A DNA stretch of 64,000 nt from Escherichia coli (GTDB lineage: Bacteria; Pseudomonadota; Gammaproteobacteria; Enterobacterales; Enterobacteriaceae), in assembly GCF_041886205.1 (NCBI RefSeq), contig NZ_CP169029.1. One strand, 5' to 3'. Below are positions 47,879 to 61,276 of the stretch, piece after piece (position 1 is the first letter of the stretch; the number at the start of each line of letters is the position of its first letter). A program made the translations under genes and the position numbers. The notes beneath the pieces were generated by a model that was not told the DNA's origin, did no database searches, and worked only from the letters and a program-made list of their open reading frames with translations.

Positions 47879-48364
47879 CTAATTATTCAGAGGATAAGCT
47901 TTTGAAAAATCATTGTACGTTTCATGAAGATGATAAAATTTTGCATCAGGGTCATTTTTCAGTTCTTCATATCTTTTCATCAGTTTTTTGAATAACCCCT
48001 CTGGTACAGGATAAGGATCTGTCTCATTTTTTGCACAGTAAAAATAGAAAAGCGCCTTTTCAAGCTCTGCAAGAGTTATATTATCCGCATTGCTTGTCAA
48101 ATACTCAAAGGCGTAAGACCACTGTTCTGACAATAATAAGAAATTCAGCGCCGAACCTTTAATAAAAACACCATCAATGTTATTTGAATTAAGTATTTTT
48201 TTACAAAATGACAGCCCCCCCCTCGAATCTTTAACTAATAAATTACTGAGACACTCTAACGCATCATCCTCTGGGTCGTTAAAAGAGTTAGCCTCTACAT
48301 AGCCATTAGCCAGGTAACTTTCTAAACCTTCAATATCCTTTGCGGTACTATTCACATTTATCAT
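47879..48364 (-). CDS. cdiI: CdiI immunity protein cognate to the full-length CdiA toxin
   Basis: 161-aa ORF; ATG overlaps the cdiA stop (ATGA) at 48361..48364. Confidence 0.7.
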
Positions 48365-51300
48365 TTGAATGTCCCCGTATTAACAGTTGAAAGTCTTTTC
48401 GTGCCATCAGGTAATATTGTCCATGTAGCATAAATCCTTACGTTACCGTTAGGCCCTGATACAACAACAGATGTTTTTCTATTTGCAGATGTAGCCCCCT
48501 GAGCTGAGTCCAATAACTTATCCATTATCATGCTGTTATTACTGGCAGTATTCACTATACCTGCTTGTTCTAATACACGAGCCATATCTTGAGAACGCTC
48601 AATATTATGGATTTGTTTTTCTAATACTTCCATCCTTTTAGCATTGTTTGGATCTTTTGCAAATTCTTTTTGGCTGCTAATCCTTGCATCTTTTAAAGAA
48701 TTATATTCTGCTTGCAAAGAATCAAGGTCACCAGAAGCTTTACCACGCATATATAGTTCAATCTTATCGACAGGTATTTTAGCATCACCTTTTACAGCCG
48801 TGATGTGATTTTTCCCATTTGCATCTGGAAGTGAGCTAACCTCGAAACTATTAGACAAGCGTTGTTTACCAGCCAGAACTTCTATCTTACTGGCCGCCGC
48901 AGCACCTATTACTGGTGCCATCGAAGCAGCTACAACTTTCATTCCATCATAAGTTTCAACGTATGCCTGTGCCGTCGCCCTATCGACCCCAAACTGCACC
49001 ATGGCATAGTTCACCATCGCATCCTTCACCTGTTGTTGATTTTGTGCATCAACACTGGTGATATTCAGCAGGTTTACTATCTGCCCGTAAGCATCCGGAT
49101 ACATATCGCTGACTTGGTTATTGTAGTGTCCGGTTTCATAACCTCCTTTAGCTGCAATAACCTTCAGTCTTTCACCGGCACAAGCTGCGCTGGCTGCCTG
49201 TCCGTTACTGCACGCAGTGATTACTGCCTTATCACTGCTGATATCTTTTTCAAGCAATGCATCATATTTCTGCTGTGCCTTTTCACGCTCTGCCGGATCT
49301 TTACTGTTTTTAAGCTTCTGTTTTGCTATCTCAAGCTCTGTCTTTTCAGACACGCTAAGATAATTATTCTCAACCGAGTTCCTGCCTGCCTGTGCCCCCG
49401 TACCGGCAGCACTTGTACTGTTGCCTGCAAGTCCCCCCGCAATACCTGAAGCAATGGTGGCCAGCATGCTGATTTGCTGACGTTCCTGTTCACTCAGGTT
49501 ATCGGTACGACCACCGTAGTAGTTATCAATGATATACCGGGCTGCAAGTTCACCGCTGAATGCCCCCGCAGCACCGGAAGCCGCATTGTTTCCGCCCAGT
49601 TGTGCGGCAAGTGCTCCCCAGACTGCGTGAGCCATCAGGTTTGCTTCCCGGTTATCGCCGGTGGCCTGTTTTATAAGCTGTGCCACTGCCGGATTCAGAC
49701 CGCCAGCCAGTACCTGCCCCGGATTCCCTGCATTCAGTCCGCCCAGCACGCCCGTGATGGCCTGTACCACCATCTGCGGCGTACTGCCCGTACCGTAGCC
49801 TTTCATGACCTCTCTGTATTCCGGAGTCTCCCGCAACTGTGCATCGCTCATGCCAGGATGCTCTTTCCTGGCTGCTTTCATCGCTTCAGTTTCGCCATAC
49901 GTCATGACGATGTTACTCATCTGACCGCTAACCTGGCTGATAACCTGCGCTTCCTGCAGACGCTTCTGCTCTTTCTCCCTGTCAAATATCGGTGCAATGC
50001 TGCCGTTGGCATTTTCCGGGTCCCGGCTGAGCCCGGCAATATCCTGCTTCTGACTCTCCTGATCACGGATAATGAGATTTCCGCCGCTGATGGCGGATGA
50101 CGTGGTACCTTCAGCATGTCCACTGCTGCCGGACATACCGGTAAGTGCGTTCGCCGCACCGGCTATTGCATTTGAGGCCACCATCTGGCTGGCTGACATC
50201 CCTGAGCCACCCGATAAACTGATTCCTGTATGGCTGGCTTTATAGTCTGCCTGGTTATGGATATCCGACCAGCCCAGCGTGCCGGTACTGAGGCTGTTTT
50301 TGTCATCCGTTGCCGTGGACGCAATTACCGCACCATTGAGCTGAGTGTGATTCCCCACAGTGACATCAAACCCGTCTTTTCCGGCGTAGATACCACTCTG
50401 TTCCCGGACAGAATCATAATTGCTTTTAATTTTGTCCTGACTGATGCTGGCATAGCCGCTGCCGGACATTGAGCCAAACGTGAAGCTTCCACCTGCGGCC
50501 ACGCTGTTCTGTCTGCTGTCGTAACGGTCACTGTCCTGAAGGCTCGAAATGGTCAGGTTGTTGCCGACATCTGCTGTGACTTTCTCGCCACTGACCTGAG
50601 CCCCCGACAGGGTGGTATCATGTCCGCTTGTGAGGGAGACATTTTTACCCGCATCCACCGTGGTTTCGGTCCAGGTGGTACCGTTGCCTTTCTCCCTGCC
50701 CTCTGAACCATTGATACCGGCGAAGATACTGAGGCCTCCGCCATTGGTTCCACCACCAAAGCTGACGCCCACGCCGCCACCTTTGCTGCTGTTCTTCCCG
50801 GTGGTCTGTCGGGTGTCAGCGGCGGCAGCCAGCAGAATATCGTTCTGTGCATTCAGGCTGGTGTCATTGCCGGACTTAATCTGGCTCCCGGTAATGAGAA
50901 TATCGCCGCTGTTGTTATGGTCCTTATTTTTCCCCGTGGCAGTGACAGAGACATTGTTACCGGCGCTGAGGGTTGAGCCGGAGACGATATCGTGCTGATA
51001 TTTCGTCTCAGACTTCGACTGCTGATGGTTGAGCGAAATGCTCACGCCGATACCATTATTCGGGTCAGCACTCTGTTGCTGCAGTCCGTGGTTAACACCG
51101 GCCTGTACACCGGACAGAACCGCCTGTGTTCCTTTCAGTACCGCCAGACGGCTGTCGCTGGTTTCTTTCGCCTCCCGGGCCATGGTGGCAGCATTATTGA
51201 TGGCACTGCCCACCGTGCCGGAAAGGGCAACCGTCAGCCCGCTTTTCTTCTGCTCAAATTTTTCGTCCACAGTACGACGGTCATGCCCCGGGTCAACCAC

Positions 51301-54300
51301 CACACTGTCACCGGTAATGCTGATATCCCGGTTCGCAATCACATCCGAACCGCTGATATGAGCCTGTTTGCCCGCAGTAATACTGACATTACCGGCAGTG
51401 GAGCCTATGGTGCTGGCACTCTGACTCTGCGTTGTCCCGGCCTCGCGGCGGTCGTGCGTTGTCTTACTGCTGCCAGTGGTGAAACCAATACCGCCGGTAC
51501 CCGTCAGACCGGATTTCTTCGTTTCCTTAAAGCGCCAGGACGTATCTGTACTGGTGGCAGCAAGAACATCAACATGGTTATCCGCCGCCAGTGACACATC
51601 CCGGTCAGCCACCACAACCGAACCCTGTACCGTCAGGTTATTACCGGCGTTAACGGTCACGCGGTTTCCCGACAGCAGGGAGCCCTTCTCACGGGTGACG
51701 CTGTCTTCCGTGATGGTCCGGGTGGTCTGATGGCTGAGGAGACGGTTACGGGTTTCCCCTGATTCACTGTAGTGATAATCACTTTCCGTGGCAGTACCCA
51801 GTACGATGTCATGACCGGCATTCACACGGATATCGCCCTTTGCCGTTACAGCGGTCGCAACTGAGGTGATATCCCGTCCGGCAGTAACCGTGATGTCACC
51901 GCCACTGGTCATATCTGTTCCCTGCTGCCGGACCGAATCATGAACCGTCTTCATGCTGAAAGTGCTGTCGTGGTCACCTGCGCCTGTGGACTCCGCAGCC
52001 ATGTTCACATCCCGTCCGGCGCGGATATCCATACTGTTTTCAGCCGTAATACCGGCAGCCTGGCTGTTCACATCACGACCGGCGGAAAGCATCAGACTGT
52101 TCCCGGCAGTGACCGTGGGGGCCACGGCATGAGTTTCATACCACCCGGACCCGCCATAGCGACGACGTTCGCCGGCCTGTATCGCGTTCATGTTCAGGTC
52201 ATTACCGGCGGACAGTAACACGCTGTCACCGGCAGAAACAGCGGCACCGGTGATACTGATATCTCCGGCTGCGCCCATAAACAGTGAGTCCGTTGCCCTG
52301 ACAGCAGCCAGCGGACCGGTATCCGTTCCGCTGAAATGGTTATATCCGTTGTTCATCGCCCACTGTTCTGTCCGGGTGAGGTTACTGATGTTTCCGGTGG
52401 CGCTTTCCAGGGATACGGTTTTACCGCTGATGACTGAGCTGATATTGCCGATATCCCCGATGGCGCTCAGGTCCAGGCTACCGCCCGCGCTTATCAGCCC
52501 CGCATTCAGGTTGTCGATACTGCCTGTGCTGTCGAGCAGGAGGTCATTCTGTGCGTTGATGCTGCCGCCGCTGTTGGTAATATTGCCACCCGCAAGCTGC
52601 ACGTTGTTCCCGCTGATAACGCTGCCATTATGCAGGGTGATATCTTCCGGAGACAGATACAGTTTCGGAACCATGACTGTCTGTCCGTTGATGGTGACGG
52701 ACTCCCACCACAGTATGCTTCTGGTCAGTTGTGCAACCTGCCCGGCGGTCAGCGACACTCCAAAGGTCAGTCCGAGCGCTTTCTGTTGCGCTGCCGCGCT
52801 GTCCATCAGGTATTTCATCTGCGTCAGGTCAGAGCCTGTGCCGTTGATATAACGTGAGCCCGTCTGGTTCAGTATGACGTTACTGACATACCGGGTATCA
52901 AAAGCCGCATCCCCCAGAAAGCGGTAATCTTTTTCCGGTTTCAGGCCAAGACGGTCAAGAATGTACGACGAGCCCAGAAACTGTTTTTCATCGGTATACG
53001 CCGGGTCTGTTTCTCGTGGTGCCTGTCCGGGTTGCATCCTGAGCAGGTCATACAGTCCGGCAAACAGACTGCTGTCCACCTTTCCGAGACCATCCAGTTT
53101 CGGGTTCACCGTAATCAGATACGGACTGTCCGGGGCCGTGGACGGGACAAAATAACCATTGTTACCGGATGGCAGGGGATAGCTGCTTACACTTGCCCCG
53201 GACAGCGACAGCGCACCCGGGATATCCTTCAGCGTATCCGGCAGCGCGTCATTCCATACAGGGCCGGTTATCCCGGTACCGCTTTCATTCAGCAGGGCTT
53301 CACCGCTCACCCCCTGACTGACCGTCGGTGGTGTCAGGGAGTTCAGCGAAGGCACCGTTATCGTGTTACCTGCACCACCTGCCCGGGGCATGACAGTGGT
53401 ATTACCGGTGTCAGTGGCAAAGCTGGCAGACACATCACCGGCAGCGCTGATAACCGCACGGTACTGACCTGCCGGAGAGGTGCCACTGGCTTCTGTCGCA
53501 TCCGGCGAGACCTGGCGATAGACCCTGTACCATGGCTCAGTAAACCACGCTTTGGGGAGTGAGCCGGAGGCAAGCCGCCAGACCGTTTCCTTTCCGGTGG
53601 TCCCCTCCTGCCAGCCCTGATTGTTCAGTGTGTCGCCACTCAGGGTCATACTGCCACCGGCGAGAATAAACGATGCCTCATTATCCAGTCGTCCTGCACG
53701 GATATGCATATCAGCGCCGCCGGATATCCTGGCAGCATGGCCGGAGGCACTGACTGTCACCGTATCCGTATCTCCCGTACGGATACGGTATTCATCAGGT
53801 ACCGTGGCACCCTTACCCCAGTACACGGCCAGATATTCCACACCATCATGCCGGACAACACCCCACCACCGGTTATTTTCCGGAACCGGTGAAATCACCC
53901 CGTGACTGCTTCCAGGAATGACCTCATGGCTGGCCGAAATGGCATCCCATGAATTCAGCAGATGCGCCGTATTCATGGTGATATCGCCACGCGTGGTTTC
54001 AATATTACCGGAACGGTTAATGATTTCGCTGTTTGCCGTTCCGCTGCTGTCCTTCTGTACCCACAGACTGTTGCCGGCCAGGATATCACCATGCTGGTTA
54101 TGCAGACGGTCTGTAAACAGCTTCAGGTTATTCCCCGCATAAATCAGCGCACTGTTCAGCAGGGTACCGGCCACATTCATTGTCAGACTGCCTGCCGTGC
54201 CGGTAAAACCACTGATGGTGATATCACTCCGGCTGTTCAGACTCACATCGCCACCGGCCTGAAGTGAACCCGGTGCGTTAAGGAAAAGACGCTGTGCGCT

Positions 54301-57300
54301 GAAAACACTGTTGCCTTTACCGGCAGTCAGCATTCCATTGTTGGTGAATGCCTCTCCGGCACCGAGCACCATGGCATCACCCTGCATCACACCGCCGTTG
54401 GTGATGGCATTTTGCGACGTGACGGAAAGGGTTTTCCCTGCGGCCAGGGTACCATGATTCGTGAGGGCAGCAATCAGTTTCAGTGTGACATCACCGGTGG
54501 CCACCACCTGACCCTGACCACTGAAGTCCTGAGCGTCAAGCAGCAGGTTGCCTGCACTGTACAGCCGCCCTGTACCATTTTGCAGCAGTGAACTGCCCTT
54601 GACGCCAAGCCCGGAGGTTCCCAGCAGGGTACCGCTGTTGCTGAATGTGTGGTAATTCACCAGCAGGTCTGCACCCTGAAGCGTACCGGTATTATTCAGC
54701 GTGGTTCCTTTAACGTCGGCACTGCCGGTGGCAAGTACGCGTCCGCCGTTGACAGTATTCACCACATCCAGCAGCAGGGTGGCAGCCTGTACCAGTCCGC
54801 TGCCGGTGTTCGCCAGCACCTGCGCCGTCAGCGTGAGGTTACTGCCGGAGAGGATTTTGCCGTCGTTCTGCAGACGGTCAGTGGCGTTCAGGGAAACCCC
54901 GCCACCACCCTGTATCGTGCCCTGGTTACTCAGGGTCGCAGTACTGACATTCAGTGCATTCCGGCTCATCAGAACACCACCGGAACGGTTGTTCACGCCA
55001 CCGGAGGCGGCCAGCGTCAGCGTTTCGCCCTGCAGATGCCCGCCGTTTGTGAGTTGTCCTGCCGTGATGGTGGTGGCATTTCCCTGTAATTGCCCGTCGT
55101 TTGTGACACTGTCTGCCTTCAGCGTCAGCACACCTGCACTGAGCAGTTTTCCGCTCGCGTGATTGTTCAGCGTCTGATTCACCGTGAGCGTGAGAGCATC
55201 CACACCGGTGATGTCACCCGCACTGGTCAGTGAGTTCGCCTTCAGGGTCAGATTTTTTGCAATCCATTGTCCGCTGTTGCTTAAATTCAGTGCACTGAGC
55301 GCCATTTCACCGTTCGAGGTGACTTTGCTACCTGCTGTGCTGACAAGCTCACCCGTCAGACGTGCAGTCAGGCTGTCAGCCGCCTGGATCGCCCCGCTGT
55401 TTGCCAGACTGTCTGCGGTGATCAGCACCCGTTTGCCCTGCCAGTGTCCGGAACTGGTAATACTGCCTGCGGTGATTGTCAGGTCGCCGCTGGTCAGCAA
55501 TGAGCCTCCGTTATTCATCAGCGCAGGTTGAGGGGATACCATACGGGCGGCAAGCGTCAGCGCGGCGATCCCGGTGAACGTGCCACTGTTGGTGACACTG
55601 TTCTGGCGAATCGTGACATGGTCACCCTGGACAGTGCCGCGGTTATCCAGTGAATTTCCATCAAGGGAGAGCGTGCCGGCCGAAAGCAGACTGCCCCGGT
55701 TGTCCGTGGTGGCTGCGTTCAGCGTGGTGTCACCCTGGCTCATGATATCGCCGGTACTGGTCAACTGACCGGTTGCCGAAGCAGTAAGGTTACCGGTTGC
55801 CAGCACGGAGCCACTGTTCGCCCAGTTGTCCGCCTGCACGGTGAGATTCTGTCCCTGCGTGGTCCCTGCGGTATGCAGTGTTTTACCCCGGAGGGAGAGG
55901 TCGCCCGCCGTCAGCCAGCGTCCGTTACGGCCCTGTGAGAGGGTGTCGCCTGCAAGCGCCAGTGCACCGGCGCCCTGCAACAGACCATCACCATCCAGCG
56001 TGGTCGCCCTGACGTTCAGCGTGTCAGCGATGATTTTTCCCGGATTGCTGAGGGAGGCAGTGTTTAACGTTAAACCATTATCACTGGTGATAAGCCCGCT
56101 GTTGCGGATGTCCGGTATATCCAGCGTCAGGTCTGCAGCACTGTACAGCGTGCCGTTCTGCTGATTATCAAGCCTCTGTGTGTTAACGGTGAGTGAGGCC
56201 TCCCCCTGCAACAGACCACTGTTGGTCAGGGTCTGTGACTGTGTATTCAGGGCGGAACCAACAAGCACACCGCTGCTGGTCAGTTCCGGCGCACTGAGGC
56301 TGAGCGACGGGGCGCTGCTTTTCCCGCTGTGGGTGAGCTTTTCACTGGCGTTCACCGCCATGGTCTGTTGTGCTGCCTGCGTACCTGCAAGACGTGCATC
56401 TCTGGCGTTGATGCTGAGATTTTTACCGCTCTGAAGCTGTGCGCCCGCTGCGGTACTCAGTTTGTCTGCCTGAACCAGGAGGGTGTCACCGGCACTGTTT
56501 TCCCCGTCCAGCGCCACTGTTGTCACATTCAGCGTCATCGCAGCATCGCTGTGGGTGACCGATTTTTTACCGGAGCTCAGCGCCTGCGCACTGACCGTCA
56601 GCCCTTTGCCGCCGGACAGCACACCGTTCTGTGTCACATCCTGCGCCTTCAGCACCAGTACATCATCGCTCACCAGCGAACCTGTACTGGTCAGTTTCCC
56701 ACTGGCCGTGATATCCACTTTGCCCTTCGCGCCAGTGCGGCCGCTCTGGGTAAAGTCGCGGGTATTCACGGTCAGGGGACCGCCACTGAGCAGGGAGCCA
56801 CTGTTGCTGAGCGTTGTACTGCCGAGCGTCAGGGAAGCCCCCTGAACAGCACCACTGTTATTCAGCGTGCCGGCATCGAGTCCCGCATGACCTTTCGCCA
56901 GCAATATTCCGTCCTGTGTCAGCGTGGTGGCGCTGGCCGTGAGATTCCGCCCGGCGGTTATCTGTCCCTGTGTTGTCAGCGTGTCACTGGCGACAGTCAC
57001 AATATCGCGGGCCGCGTTAATCTGGCTGGCGGTATCCTGTGTGATGTTTTTCGCGGCAAGCGTTACATCCCGGCCGGCAGTCAGTTTTTCATTCTGTTGA
57101 GTGATTCTGCCGCCGGCGGTCAGGCTGAGGTCCTTGTCGCTGTTAAGCGTTCCATTGCTGAGAACGATATCGCTCCGGCTGCTGACGCTCAGGTTACCTC
57201 CCGCTTTATGGTCGCCGGTTAAGGTGACGCCCTGACCTTTTGCAGTGACGGCCCCCGTGGCGAGACTGTTGTTGACAGTCAGTCTGCCGCTGGCATCCAG

Positions 57301-58140
57301 GGTGATATCGCCATCGCGGGCATAAAGGTTACCAAGATTAACCCCGACACCACTTTCAGTGGAGGTCAGATGAATACGCCTGGCGTACATTCCACCGAGC
57401 GCGCCGGTATCAACGGCAACTTTCGGCACATCACCTTCGCCCTTCAGTGCACTGACACGACCATCTGCAGTTATCCGGTTAGCGCCTGCAGTGACAGTTA
57501 AATCCTTCGCATGAAGCGCGGCATTCACTTCCGTTGCACGGGCAATAATGGATACGGCATCGCTCCGGGTGCCGTCCAGGCCCGCGCCATTGATGGTGAT
57601 ACTGCCTTCAGTCACCTCCAGCGCCTGCAGGCTGCCGTCGGCATTCATCACAGGTCTGCCTGTGGTGAGCGTCGCGTGCGGCGTGTTGATAAAACCACAG
57701 CCGTCACAGGTGATACCATACGGGTTGGCAACCATCACATTCGCCGCTTTGCCGGCCACTTCCGTATAGCCCTGCAGCAGTGAACGGTTACCGCCGGTCA
57801 CTTCGTTGATGATACCCTTCGCTTCCCCGCCCGCTTTCAGGTTCGGGTTATTCTGTATCAGTCCACCAAGCTGCGTCGGATTAAGCTTAGCGGTGGCATT
57901 ATTGAGAATCAGCCCTTCCTTCCCGACGTTGTAATCCGTAAACCGGTTATGCGAAATCCCGGCCCCGTTCGGCGTGGCAATGTTCACGACCGGCACACCA
58001 TTTGCCGCTTTATCCATTCCGGCCCCGTTTTGTGGGGTGATGACGGCCCCCACAGCCGGTAACAACGGCTGCCCGGCGATAATCGCACTGACCAGGTAAC
58101 TCAGCAGGCGGTAAGTGAAGTGAACGGGAGGCTGATTCAT
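48361..58140 (-). CDS. cdiA: CdiA contact-dependent inhibition exoprotein (two-partner secretion TpsA, 3259 aa)
   Basis: Extended signal peptide and TPS domain (...[26 protein letters not shown]...), long FHA-type repeat region, pretoxin ...GRNSVENN (VENN codons 49363..49374), 333-aa C-terminal domain; SD AAGGGA before ATG. Confidence 0.95.
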
Positions 58141-58152
58141 GGTAATAATCCC

Positions 58153-59919
58153 TTAAAACGCGACGGCAACGCGCCAGTAAACCGTGAGATGGTCAGGGGC
58201 AAGCCAGTCCGGGTAAACCAGAGGCAGCCCGGCAGTGAACGAACCGGAAACATAGTCACTGGTGGTGCTGAGCCCGGCAGCACCACCCCACAGCGTGCCG
58301 GACGAGTACGGGTCATCTCTGTCAGAGTGCAGCCAGCCGCCGTCCAGTGCAGCCACTGCACGGACAGTTCCCACATATGGCAGGGAGAACAGAGACCAGG
58401 ACAGCTCATTTCGCAGATAACCGCCGTTATTACCGGAGATATACTGCTCCTTAAAGCCACGCACTGAACTCTCACCCCCGAGGCTCAGTTGTTCCACACC
58501 ATGAAGACGGTCCGGTGACCACTGGGCATAAGCGCTGGTCAGCCACCACACCCTGTCCGTGACGGGGCGCTGAAAACTGGCACTCACCGACCATTTCCGG
58601 AACTGATTTACGGGCAGGTCTCCCCTTTTCCCGTGGTCGCTTTCTGCGCCGAACCAGGGCATCCCCCGTGTGAATACCGGATTCAGTGTTCCGACACCCC
58701 CCAGAAACTTGTGTGTGTGATTCAGCCCGACAGAAAATGAAGTGAGTTTACGGCTGCTGCCCTGAAGCAGAACATCATCCAGATAATTGTGAATAATGCG
58801 GTGCTGCAGACCTCCGGTCAGTGCTGTCTTCATGTCCCCGTTACGGAACAGGACATGCGACAGTCCCAGCCGGTGAGTCTGCAGGTCTCCCGTGGAACGC
58901 CACCGCCAGCCCCGGTTATCAATGGTGCTGAGGTAGTCACTCCATGAATACGTATAATCCACCAGGGTATAGCCATACGGCAGACTGACACCGGCGGCAA
59001 AATTCCTCGCATCATGTGACACCGAAAAGTCACTGCTCCGTCCCCCGCTGACAAACCAGTTGTCAGCCAGCCCCAGCGGATTATTAAAGGAAAGGACACC
59101 ATTTAACTGCCCCGTACCGGTATTCTTCTGCCCGCTGTTGTCGATACCCACGCTCCCTGTGACGGGCCATTCCGGCAATGCCGTCAGTGTCACCACCGAC
59201 CATCCCTCACGGTCACCGGGCGATATTTCAATCTGTACCGGCTCCGTACGCAGACGATTAATCTGCTCCATCCCCTGCTCAATATCCCGCAGGTTCAGAA
59301 CCTTCCCCTCCATTCCCGGGAAAACCATCTTCAGGGTGCGGGCAGGAAGGTCAGCGCCTTCCGCCCGGATTTGCTGCAGCCTGCCTTCCATGACCGTTAT
59401 GTGCAGTACGCCCCCTGAAAGGTCCTGCTCTGTCAGAAAGGCCCGGCTGGTGATATATCCCCGGCGTATATAGCCGTCCGTCACGGCATCCGTGACCGCA
59501 GTCAGGCCGGTGATATTCAGACACTGATTCACCCACGGTGCCACCAGTCTGTCGGTTTCTGCAGACGTCAGTCGGGTGGCCCCACTGACAACAATGCGTG
59601 ACACCGTAAAGCAGGGGCCTTCAGTACCGGCAGACGTTTCCGGAGACGGCGTGATAGTCAGCGGCGCACTGCGCTCCAGCGCATCACGCTGACGCTGGTT
59701 TTCATCCAGCAACTGCTGCTGTTGCTGCTGAATTGCACTGCGGTCACCCGGAGACAGCATGGCTGCCGGAGACGAAAACGAAAGAATGCAAAGGCAGGAG
59801 AGGAGGGGAAAATAGCGTGCCACCGGAGAGAAAGTGCGGAGCTTAAATGCGCACTGACCGGAAACCATACCAGGCAACAAATTTCTGTTCGCCAGTAAGT
59901 TATCCTGCCGGTGCTGCAT
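58153..59919 (-). CDS. cdiB: CdiB, TpsB/Omp85-family outer-membrane transporter for CdiA
   Basis: 588 aa of ShlB/FhaC type with POTRA region and beta-barrel; SD GAGGAG before ATG 59919; stop 12 nt before cdiA start. Confidence 0.9.
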   Translation of the reverse strand: MQHRQDNLLANRNLLPGMVSGQCAFKLRTFSPVARYFPLLSCLCILSFSSPAAMLSPGDRSAIQQQQQQLLDENQRQRDALERSAPLTITPSPETSAGTEGPCFTVSRIVVSGATRLTSAETDRLVAPWVNQCLNITGLTAVTDAVTDGYIRRGYITSRAFLTEQDLSGGVLHITVMEGRLQQIRAEGADLPARTLKMVFPGMEGKVLNLRDIEQGMEQINRLRTEPVQIEISPGDREGWSVVTLTALPEWPVTGSVGIDNSGQKNTGTGQLNGVLSFNNPLGLADNWFVSGGRSSDFSVSHDARNFAAGVSLPYGYTLVDYTYSWSDYLSTIDNRGWRWRSTGDLQTHRLGLSHVLFRNGDMKTALTGGLQHRIIHNYLDDVLLQGSSRKLTSFSVGLNHTHKFLGGVGTLNPVFTRGMPWFGAESDHGKRGDLPVNQFRKWSVSASFQRPVTDRVWWLTSAYAQWSPDRLHGVEQLSLGGESSVRGFKEQYISGNNGGYLRNELSWSLFSLPYVGTVRAVAALDGGWLHSDRDDPYSSGTLWGGAAGLSTTSDYVSGSFTAGLPLVYPDWLAPDHLTVYWRVAVAF

Positions 59920-60286
59920 ATTCTCCTCGTGTCGTGGGTATTCAGTGTAAATTAACGTAAGCGGAATGTCAGTGCTGAAATTTACACCAGATAAAAAACA
60001 TACAGAAACAATCCTGTTATGTAAAATCTGGAAAAAATGTCAGAAATGTGATTGAAGTTGTATTTTTCGGAGGGGAAATGGAAAACAAACATCCGTATGG
60101 TAAAAAGGATGCTTCCTGCGGAGTAACAATCCGGGACACAACGCAAGTTCCAGTTCTGGTGTTGTGAATTTGAGTAAAAATAATCGTAACTCTCCGGAGA
60201 ACCGGAGCTTTCCCGAAGCGGCGTATTCTTATAAATGGAAATCCCTGCAGGTAATCACTCTGCCCGATAGCTGCATAATTTGCCTG

Positions 60287-60520
60287 TTAATCCTCATCCC
60301 CGGAGGCAAGCTCTGAAAACCACTCAGGGTGTTCACTGTATGCCACATTCAGCGCATCCCAGGAGACGTCCACATAAAAACTGTCCCACAATTTGCGGGT
60401 AACCACCTCTGCCAGTCGGTTCCTGTTATCCGCCTGTCCGGCATAACCTCTCTCTGCCAGCCACTCATTCAGTTCATGTTCCAGAGACAGATTGATAAAA
60501 TCGTAATCGGACCTTGCCAT
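60287..60520 (-). CDS. Hypothetical acidic small protein (77 aa)
   Basis: ORF with ATG; no recognisable motif. Confidence 0.35.
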   Translation of the reverse strand: MARSDYDFINLSLEHELNEWLAERGYAGQADNRNRLAEVVTRKLWDSFYVDVSWDALNVAYSEHPEWFSELASGDED

Positions 60521-60616
60521 TCCCGTTTCCTTTGCACATTTTTTCAGACACGGGAATAAAGTATAAAAAGCGGCACTCTGCCCCTGTCAAGGTGAAATCT
60601 GCCCTTCATCGCAATG

Positions 60617-61276
60617 TCAGAGATGGTATGCCGGTATTTTGCGGGTTGTTCCCGTCAGGTTATCGCTCGCTTCCACGGACGTTGTCACCACCGGCATTCC
60701 GCTCTTTCTCAGTCTCAGGATATCAGCCGCAATGCGCTGACTACCAGACCAGAACAGCCCGTCCAGTGCAGTCACCAGTAAACCGGCTTCCAGCGCATAC
60801 TTCAGCCGTTCACGGGGCACTTTCACTTCCCGGGCAATCTGCTGATATGGCAATGATGTGTTTTCATTCCCAACCACCCGGCGAATACGATGAGACAGAT
60901 GATACCGGTATGTATCTGGCACACCCGAAAGGCTGGCCTTCAGGCTGTACACGCAGCCAAAACGTTTATCGTTGAACACCACATTTTTCTGGCTGATGCC
61001 CCATTCTTCACGCAGCGCGGCAATCAGTTGTGGTGTACGGGTAAGCAACAAGCGAAAAGGCAGTTCAAAACTGGTGACGTAATCCACATTCAGCAGGGCA
61101 ATACGCAGCCGTTCTTCTGGCCCGGCCTCTGTCTGCCGGCACTCCTCCAGAACATCCAGCCACTGCCGGCGAAGACGGGAGGATTCATTCAGCTCTGTAA
61201 AACAGTATTTATCCGCCAGATAGTCAATTCGTGTACGCATACTGAAGAGAATTCCGTATAAAGATTCAGCTGGCAA
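60617..61276 (-). CDS. Hypothetical protein (219 aa), possible C-terminal winged-helix
   Basis: ORF with ATG; no recognisable catalytic motif. Confidence 0.4.
   Translation of the reverse strand: MPAESLYGILFSMRTRIDYLADKYCFTELNESSRLRRQWLDVLEECRQTEAGPEERLRIALLNVDYVTSFELPFRLLLTRTPQLIAALREEWGISQKNVVFNDKRFGCVYSLKASLSGVPDTYRYHLSHRIRRVVGNENTSLPYQQIAREVKVPRERLKYALEAGLLVTALDGLFWSGSQRIAADILRLRKSGMPVVTTSVEASDNLTGTTRKIPAYHL

Follow-up and report, generated by a model that had tools for sequence, protein, structure and literature searches.

A cdiBAI locus of Escherichia coli predicted to encode the known CdiA-CT/CdiI pair of strain 3006, a PtsG-dependent tRNase toxin and its immunity protein

Introduction

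The contact-dependent inhibition (CDI) system closest to the one described here is that of Escherichia coli 3006, whose toxin and immunity proteins (GenBank EKI34460.1 / EKI34459.1) are the CdiA-CT/CdiI pair of the PDB entries 6VEK and 6CP8 (PMC9424206). CdiA-CT^EC3006 is bipartite and consists of a PtsG-dependent entry domain followed by a BECR tRNase; the entry domain is made up of nine helices in two subdomains and contains a Cys55-Cys65 disulfide (PMC9424206). Entry requires PtsG in the target cell as well as the proton gradient (CCCP dependence), and only the form that has been cleaved exactly after VENN, with Tyr5 at its N-terminus, translocates (PMC9424206). An independent record of the role of PtsG comes from ptsG null alleles, which confer resistance to the strain 3006 toxin (PMC5371414).

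With regard to the toxin domain, the structure authors described a BECR fold with a colicin-D-like Lys204/Tyr208/Thr330 triad in their CASP13 account (PMC6851490). A review gives uncharged tRNA-Ile(GAU) as the substrate, K204, Y208, H256, R260, and T330 as the active site, and cleavage of the acceptor stem after C71 independently of other proteins (PMC9086364). The wording of this review is internally loose, since 'anticodon loop' appears in the sentence just before the one that names the acceptor stem and C71; both substrate and cleavage site are taken here second-hand from it and from subsequent publications of the same groups. Activity has been followed as cleavage of tRNA-Ile on Northern blots, which is blocked by CdiI, and the purified toxin also cleaves tRNA-Ile in total RNA in vitro (PMC9424206). 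CdiI^EC3006 itself is an alpha-solenoid monomer that sits over the active site of the toxin (PMC6851490).

In this work, we analyzed a cdiBAI locus present in a stretch of 64,000 nucleotides of E. coli DNA, referred to as the window. By sequence, it is almost certainly a locus with the E. coli 3006-type pair CdiA-CT^EC3006 / CdiI^EC3006, for which import, substrate, and immunity are expected to be as published for the identical protein. We also infer that the locus is expressed and active in its own host strain.

Results

Organization of the cdiBAI Locus

The positions of the genes, domains, and motifs are compiled in Table 1. According to the list of open reading frames, cdiB sits 12 nt upstream of cdiA, and the stop codon of cdiA and the start codon of cdiI overlap by 4 nt, as ATGA. 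CdiB matched the Pfam families ShlB (E-value 3e-90), POTRA_2 (7e-23), and POTRA_3 (1.5e-18), and the corresponding gene is named ShlB/FhaC/HecB family protein in RefSeq. At the N-terminus of CdiA, Pfam detected the TPS secretion domain (1e-49, residues 36-288) followed by haemagglutinin repeats, and within the last 1199 amino acids it detected Fil_haemagg_2 repeats (3e-43), PT-VENN (6e-17) and, directly after it, DUF6862. The locus has therefore the components by which a CDI system with type Vb secretion is recognized, namely a CdiB with POTRA domains adjoining cdiA, and a CdiA with TPS, FHA repeats, and PT-VENN ahead of a variable C-terminal region (CT).

Table 1. Features of the cdiBAI locus and of the modules downstream of it (positions in the window).
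Feature	Position	Strand	Basis
cdiB, 588 aa, Omp85-family outer-membrane transporter of the two-partner secretion pair	58153..59919	-	ORF; Pfam; RefSeq
cdiA, 3259 aa + stop, full-length CDI effector	48361..58140	-	ORF; TPS, FHA repeats, PT-VENN
Pre-toxin PT-VENN domain, CdiA residues about 2880-2929	49354..49503	-	Pfam PF04829, E 6e-17
VENN motif, CdiA residues 2923-2926	49363..49374	-	Translation
Predicted PtsG-dependent cytoplasm-entry domain, CT residues 5-173	48856..49362	-	Identity to 6VEK_A
Predicted BECR-fold (colicin-D-like) tRNase toxin domain, CT residues 174-337	48364..48855	-	Identity to 6VEK_A
cdiA stop codon	48361-48363	-	Translation
cdiI, 161 aa, cognate immunity protein	47879..48364	-	160/161 identity to 6CP8_C/6VEK_I
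Second orphan module directly after cdiI, Gly-rich 173-aa tail	46982-47710	-	Open frame after stop at 47711-47713
VENN of the Gly-rich orphan	47639-47650	-	Sequence
80-aa hydrophobic ORF after the Gly-rich orphan	46753-46995	-	ORF list
Orphan cdiA-CT, UPEC536 type, 307 aa, ends GYGI	44973-45896	-	PDB 5J5V_B 'tRNA nuclease CdiA', E 9e-148
VENN of the UPEC536-type orphan	45645-45656	-	Sequence
Orphan cdiI, 128 aa, after the UPEC536-type CT	44590-44976	-	PDB 5J5V_C 'Immunity protein CdiI', E 1e-79

VENN occurs a single time in the 3259 residues of CdiA, and CT residues are counted here from V1 of this motif. The initial annotation had described a toxin region located after the VENN of CdiA and provided with its own downstream immunity gene, which the translations bore out: that of 48361-49374 on the minus strand reproduced the 333 residues it had quoted after VENN, ending NTGTFK and then the stop. 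Along the locus, the G+C content steps down from 57% in the body of cdiA to 46% in the entry domain, 37% in the toxin domain, and 35% in cdiI. In CDI loci, CT/immunity cassettes that have been exchanged horizontally usually leave a signature of this kind.

Identity of the CdiA-CT/CdiI Pair

When all PDB chain sequences were compared with the CT (337 aa from V1 of VENN), it was identical to chain A of 6VEK, entitled 'contact-dependent toxin CdiA', at 337 of 337 residues (E-value 4e-215). Residues 174-337 also matched 6CP8 chain A (E-value 1e-99), the sole difference being a one-residue deletion in the 6CP8 construct. For CdiI, the comparison with PDB chains yielded 160 identical residues out of 161 with both 6CP8_C and 6VEK_I, each named 'CdiI' (E-value 2e-106). 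None of the PDB chains of the other E. coli CDI toxin classes (EC93 ionophore, UPEC536 CysK-dependent tRNase, STECO31 EndoU, NC101, and EC869/TA271 DNase) matched the CT at E<=1; weak matches to the 40S ribosomal protein S4 (E-values of 0.36-0.96) were regarded as chance and discarded.

The missing residue of 6CP8 is described in PMC9424206 with the statement that the structure 'lacks residue Asn337'. In our alignment, it is Asn332 (V1-of-VENN numbering) that is missing, and position 337 is the C-terminal Lys; Asn337 is probably a numbering slip.

The initial annotation had left the class of this CT unassigned and had proposed that the pair might be uncharacterised. Neither proposal holds, as the CT is the 6VEK_A sequence over its whole length and the structure, entry route, and tRNase activity of the E. 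coli 3006 protein have been published, so that 6VEK and 6CP8 provide a confident match to a characterised CdiA-CT family. The pair is already known, with its structure, import route, substrate, and immunity all in the literature. The remark of the initial annotation that there was no recognisable motif was nevertheless a fair description: nothing can be recognised by eye because the toxin domain and CdiI are both without a model in Pfam and in NCBIfam. CdiI had no significant match in Pfam and none in NCBIfam, which also returned no family for the CT or for the five downstream ORFs. The lack of models for both proteins, together with the name 'hypothetical protein' that CdiI bears in every public source listed, is what would also be seen with a toxin and an immunity protein that formed a new, uncharacterised class; the chance that this is such a pair is practically negligible, given that both sequences are identical or nearly identical to the solved and biochemically characterised CdiA-CT/CdiI^EC3006.

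The single difference in CdiI lies at position 150, which is Asn in the window vs. Asp in 6CP8_C and 6VEK_I. Asn150 was found in all six natural E. coli alleles compared and, judged from them, is the common natural form of CdiI, while the Asp150 of the PDB chains may be specific to strain 3006 or a variant of the construct. It could be argued that Asn150, or the pairing of this CT with the receptor-binding region of this CdiA and with two orphan modules further downstream, alters the immunity affinity or the target range relative to laboratory EC3006; this is very improbable, and the data give no hint of it.

Entry Domain and tRNase Toxin Domain

The C-terminal boundary of the entry domain was placed where the 6CP8 toxin-domain construct begins (S174). 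CT residues 1-173 are identical to 6VEK_A, and Tyr5, Cys55, and Cys65 are present. DUF6862 matched CT residues 10-80 (E-value 5e-10), which correspond to the first subdomain of the entry domain; any other Pfam match on the CT had an E-value >0.01.

The BECR alpha/beta fold was assigned to the toxin domain because its sequence is identical to that of a chain whose crystal structure shows this fold (PMC6851490, PMC9424206). K204, Y208, H256, R260, and T330 are all found at their published positions in the window CT, as is W318. The catalytic residues as well as Y5, C55, C65, and W318 are unchanged in five other E. coli alleles.

Whether such a toxin would work alone or as a cofactor-activated tRNase, needing EF-Tu/EF-Ts like those of Kp342 and NC101 or CysK like that of UPEC536, can be judged from its relatives. 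The structurally related Kp342 toxin, whose substrate is the same, gains activity with EF-Tu, EF-Ts, and GTP, and NC101 carries an entry domain of the same PtsG family (PMC9424206). However, the activity of CdiA-CT^EC3006 is stated to be independent of other proteins (PMC9086364), and the purified toxin cut tRNA-Ile in total RNA in vitro (PMC9424206). In addition, no NC101 or Kp342 chain matched the CT in the PDB at E<=1, and the CT has no sequence similarity to the UPEC536-type toxin of the window. A need for a cofactor is thus highly improbable, and a tRNase acting without other proteins, as published for EC3006, is the reading that we retain.

Distribution and Annotation of the Module

At least 80% of the CT+cdiI segment is carried by 14 of 5426 complete E. 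coli genomes, two of which, STEC434 and CFIAFB20190157, have it with 100% identity at the DNA level. In about 650 further genomes, the match is confined to a portion of the segment, with an identity that is mostly 80-90%, and these partial matches probably represent the shared pre-toxin and entry region. In a megablast with 24 kb of the window, none of the complete E. coli genomes reached a coverage of 80%, the highest value being that of STEC434 (63% coverage, 98.6% identity). At least 1000 public contigs carry the exact CdiI with Asn150, and Shigella, Citrobacter, Dryocola, and Pluralibacter are all represented in its 90% cluster. The exact 3259-aa CdiA is already in NCBI as 'contact-dependent inhibition effector tRNA nuclease', and the identical gene appears in RefSeq PGAP annotation as 'cdiA: contact-dependent inhibition effector tRNA nuclease'.

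EC93 is the founding CDI strain, and its plasmid pCP127 has a 93%-identical, N-terminally truncated CT/cdiI at 97921-99392, beside an IS66 transposase. The EC93 genome paper makes no mention of orphans, of strain 3006, or of an EC3006-like truncated module on pCP127.

Many E. coli strains retain the module as an orphan or a pseudogene, which could suggest that it is also silent or decaying in the window and contributes immunity only. Several complete genomes annotate the same CT/cdiI as an N-terminally truncated 'VENN motif pre-toxin' pseudogene, the copy of strain A12 has an internal stop at CT residue 188, and that of EC93 pCP127 is truncated next to the IS66 element. In the window, however, the CT is free of stops, retains every catalytic residue, and forms one reading frame with an intact cdiA of 3259 aa that has TPS, FHA, and PT-VENN, with an intact cdiB upstream. 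Decay at this locus is very improbable, and we favor an intact cdiBAI system.

Modules Downstream of cdiI and Flanking Region

Two orphan toxin modules lie downstream of cdiI (Table 1). The CT analyzed here is unrelated to either the Gly-rich or the GYGI-tailed toxin, as had been proposed initially, the best E-value obtained by BLASTP being 3.8.

RefSeq calls the equivalent of the Gly-rich orphan in STEC434 a 'VENN motif pre-toxin domain-containing protein' with an N-terminal truncation. By resemblance, this orphan may be an ionophore toxin of the EC93 type, and the 80-aa ORF that follows it may encode the small membrane protein conferring immunity. With respect to the GYGI-tailed module, there are in-frame stops upstream of the 307-aa ORF, and it is therefore not fused to a full-length cdiA; its matches to PDB chains identify it as the known CysK-activated toxin.

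Two more ORFs were observed on the minus strand between both orphan modules, one (45931-46452) encoding a polytopic membrane protein of 173 aa that is annotated as DUF2569 in STEC434, and a small one of 83-93 aa (46467-46748). Both may be left over from another module or be immunity-like.

The region at 43556-44559, immediately beyond the last orphan module on its downstream side, contains ORF fragments that look like remnants of IS-family transposases and accessory proteins. This is consistent with STEC434, in which IS3, IS21, and IS66 elements flank the same locus. Debris of mobile elements thus borders the CDI island. Beyond these remnants, two large ORFs of 459 and 595 aa are located at 39307-42515 on the minus strand, and the 595-aa one looks by eye like a NERD-type nuclease domain fused to a UvrD-like helicase. 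In a neighbouring genome, the match to window positions 45637-64000, which lies outside the 459-aa and 595-aa ORFs, is annotated with a 'DEAD/DEAH box helicase'.

Discussion

From the published work on the identical protein, the following course of action is proposed for this locus. CdiB would export the 3259-aa CdiA filament, and contact with a susceptible cell would lead to delivery of the post-VENN region to the target periplasm. Precise cleavage after VENN would expose Tyr5 as the new N-terminus, and the processed entry domain (about residues 5-173, with the Cys55-Cys65 disulfide) would then carry the toxin domain into the cytosol with the help of the proton gradient and of PtsG, the glucose transporter of the inner membrane. 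Once there, the toxin domain (residues 174-337), which is predicted to be a BECR-fold, colicin-D-like RNase with the Lys204-Tyr208-Thr330 triad plus His256 and Arg260, would cut the acceptor stem of deacylated tRNA-Ile(GAU) after C71 without EF-Tu or EF-Ts, resulting in translation arrest. Sibling cells would be shielded by the 161-aa alpha-solenoid CdiI, expected to bind over the active site.

As a discovery, this locus adds nothing, because toxin, entry domain, and immunity protein have solved structures and the substrate is defined. It does hold a lesson for annotation, since two crystal structures have not kept CdiI from being named 'hypothetical protein' to this day on at least 1000 public contigs. 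A reading based on motifs or profiles will keep flagging the pair as novel, while sequence comparison with the PDB resolves such cases at once.

Regarding related systems, CdiA-CT^Kp342 (Klebsiella pneumoniae 342, PDB 6CP9) and the nuclease domain of colicin D have in common with this toxin, as described in the literature, a BECR fold and a Lys-Tyr-Thr triad, and they likewise target deacylated tRNA-Ile(GAU) at its acceptor stem (PMC9086364, PMC6851490). Kp342 differs in its sequence (about 15% identity), in cutting after C72, and in the stimulation of its activity by EF-Tu/EF-Ts/GTP; its immunity protein is also unrelated, being a dimeric beta-sandwich in contrast to the alpha-solenoid CdiI^EC3006 (PMC9086364, PMC6851490). 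In the PDB search, the window CT had no detectable sequence match to the Kp342 chains. CdiA-CT^NC101 and CdiA-CT^STECO31 belong to the same family of PtsG-dependent entry domains, with about 70% pairwise identity (PMC9424206), but the NC101 toxin domain is an EF-Tu-dependent tRNase and that of STECO31 an EndoU anticodon nuclease for tRNA-Glu (PMC9424206, PMC9086364), and the immunity proteins of both differ from CdiI of EC3006. It is with CdiA-CT^EC3006/CdiI^EC3006 that the window shares, in a comparison of CT and CdiI only, the domain order, the catalytic residues, the disulfide cysteines, and the cdiA-cdiI overlap.
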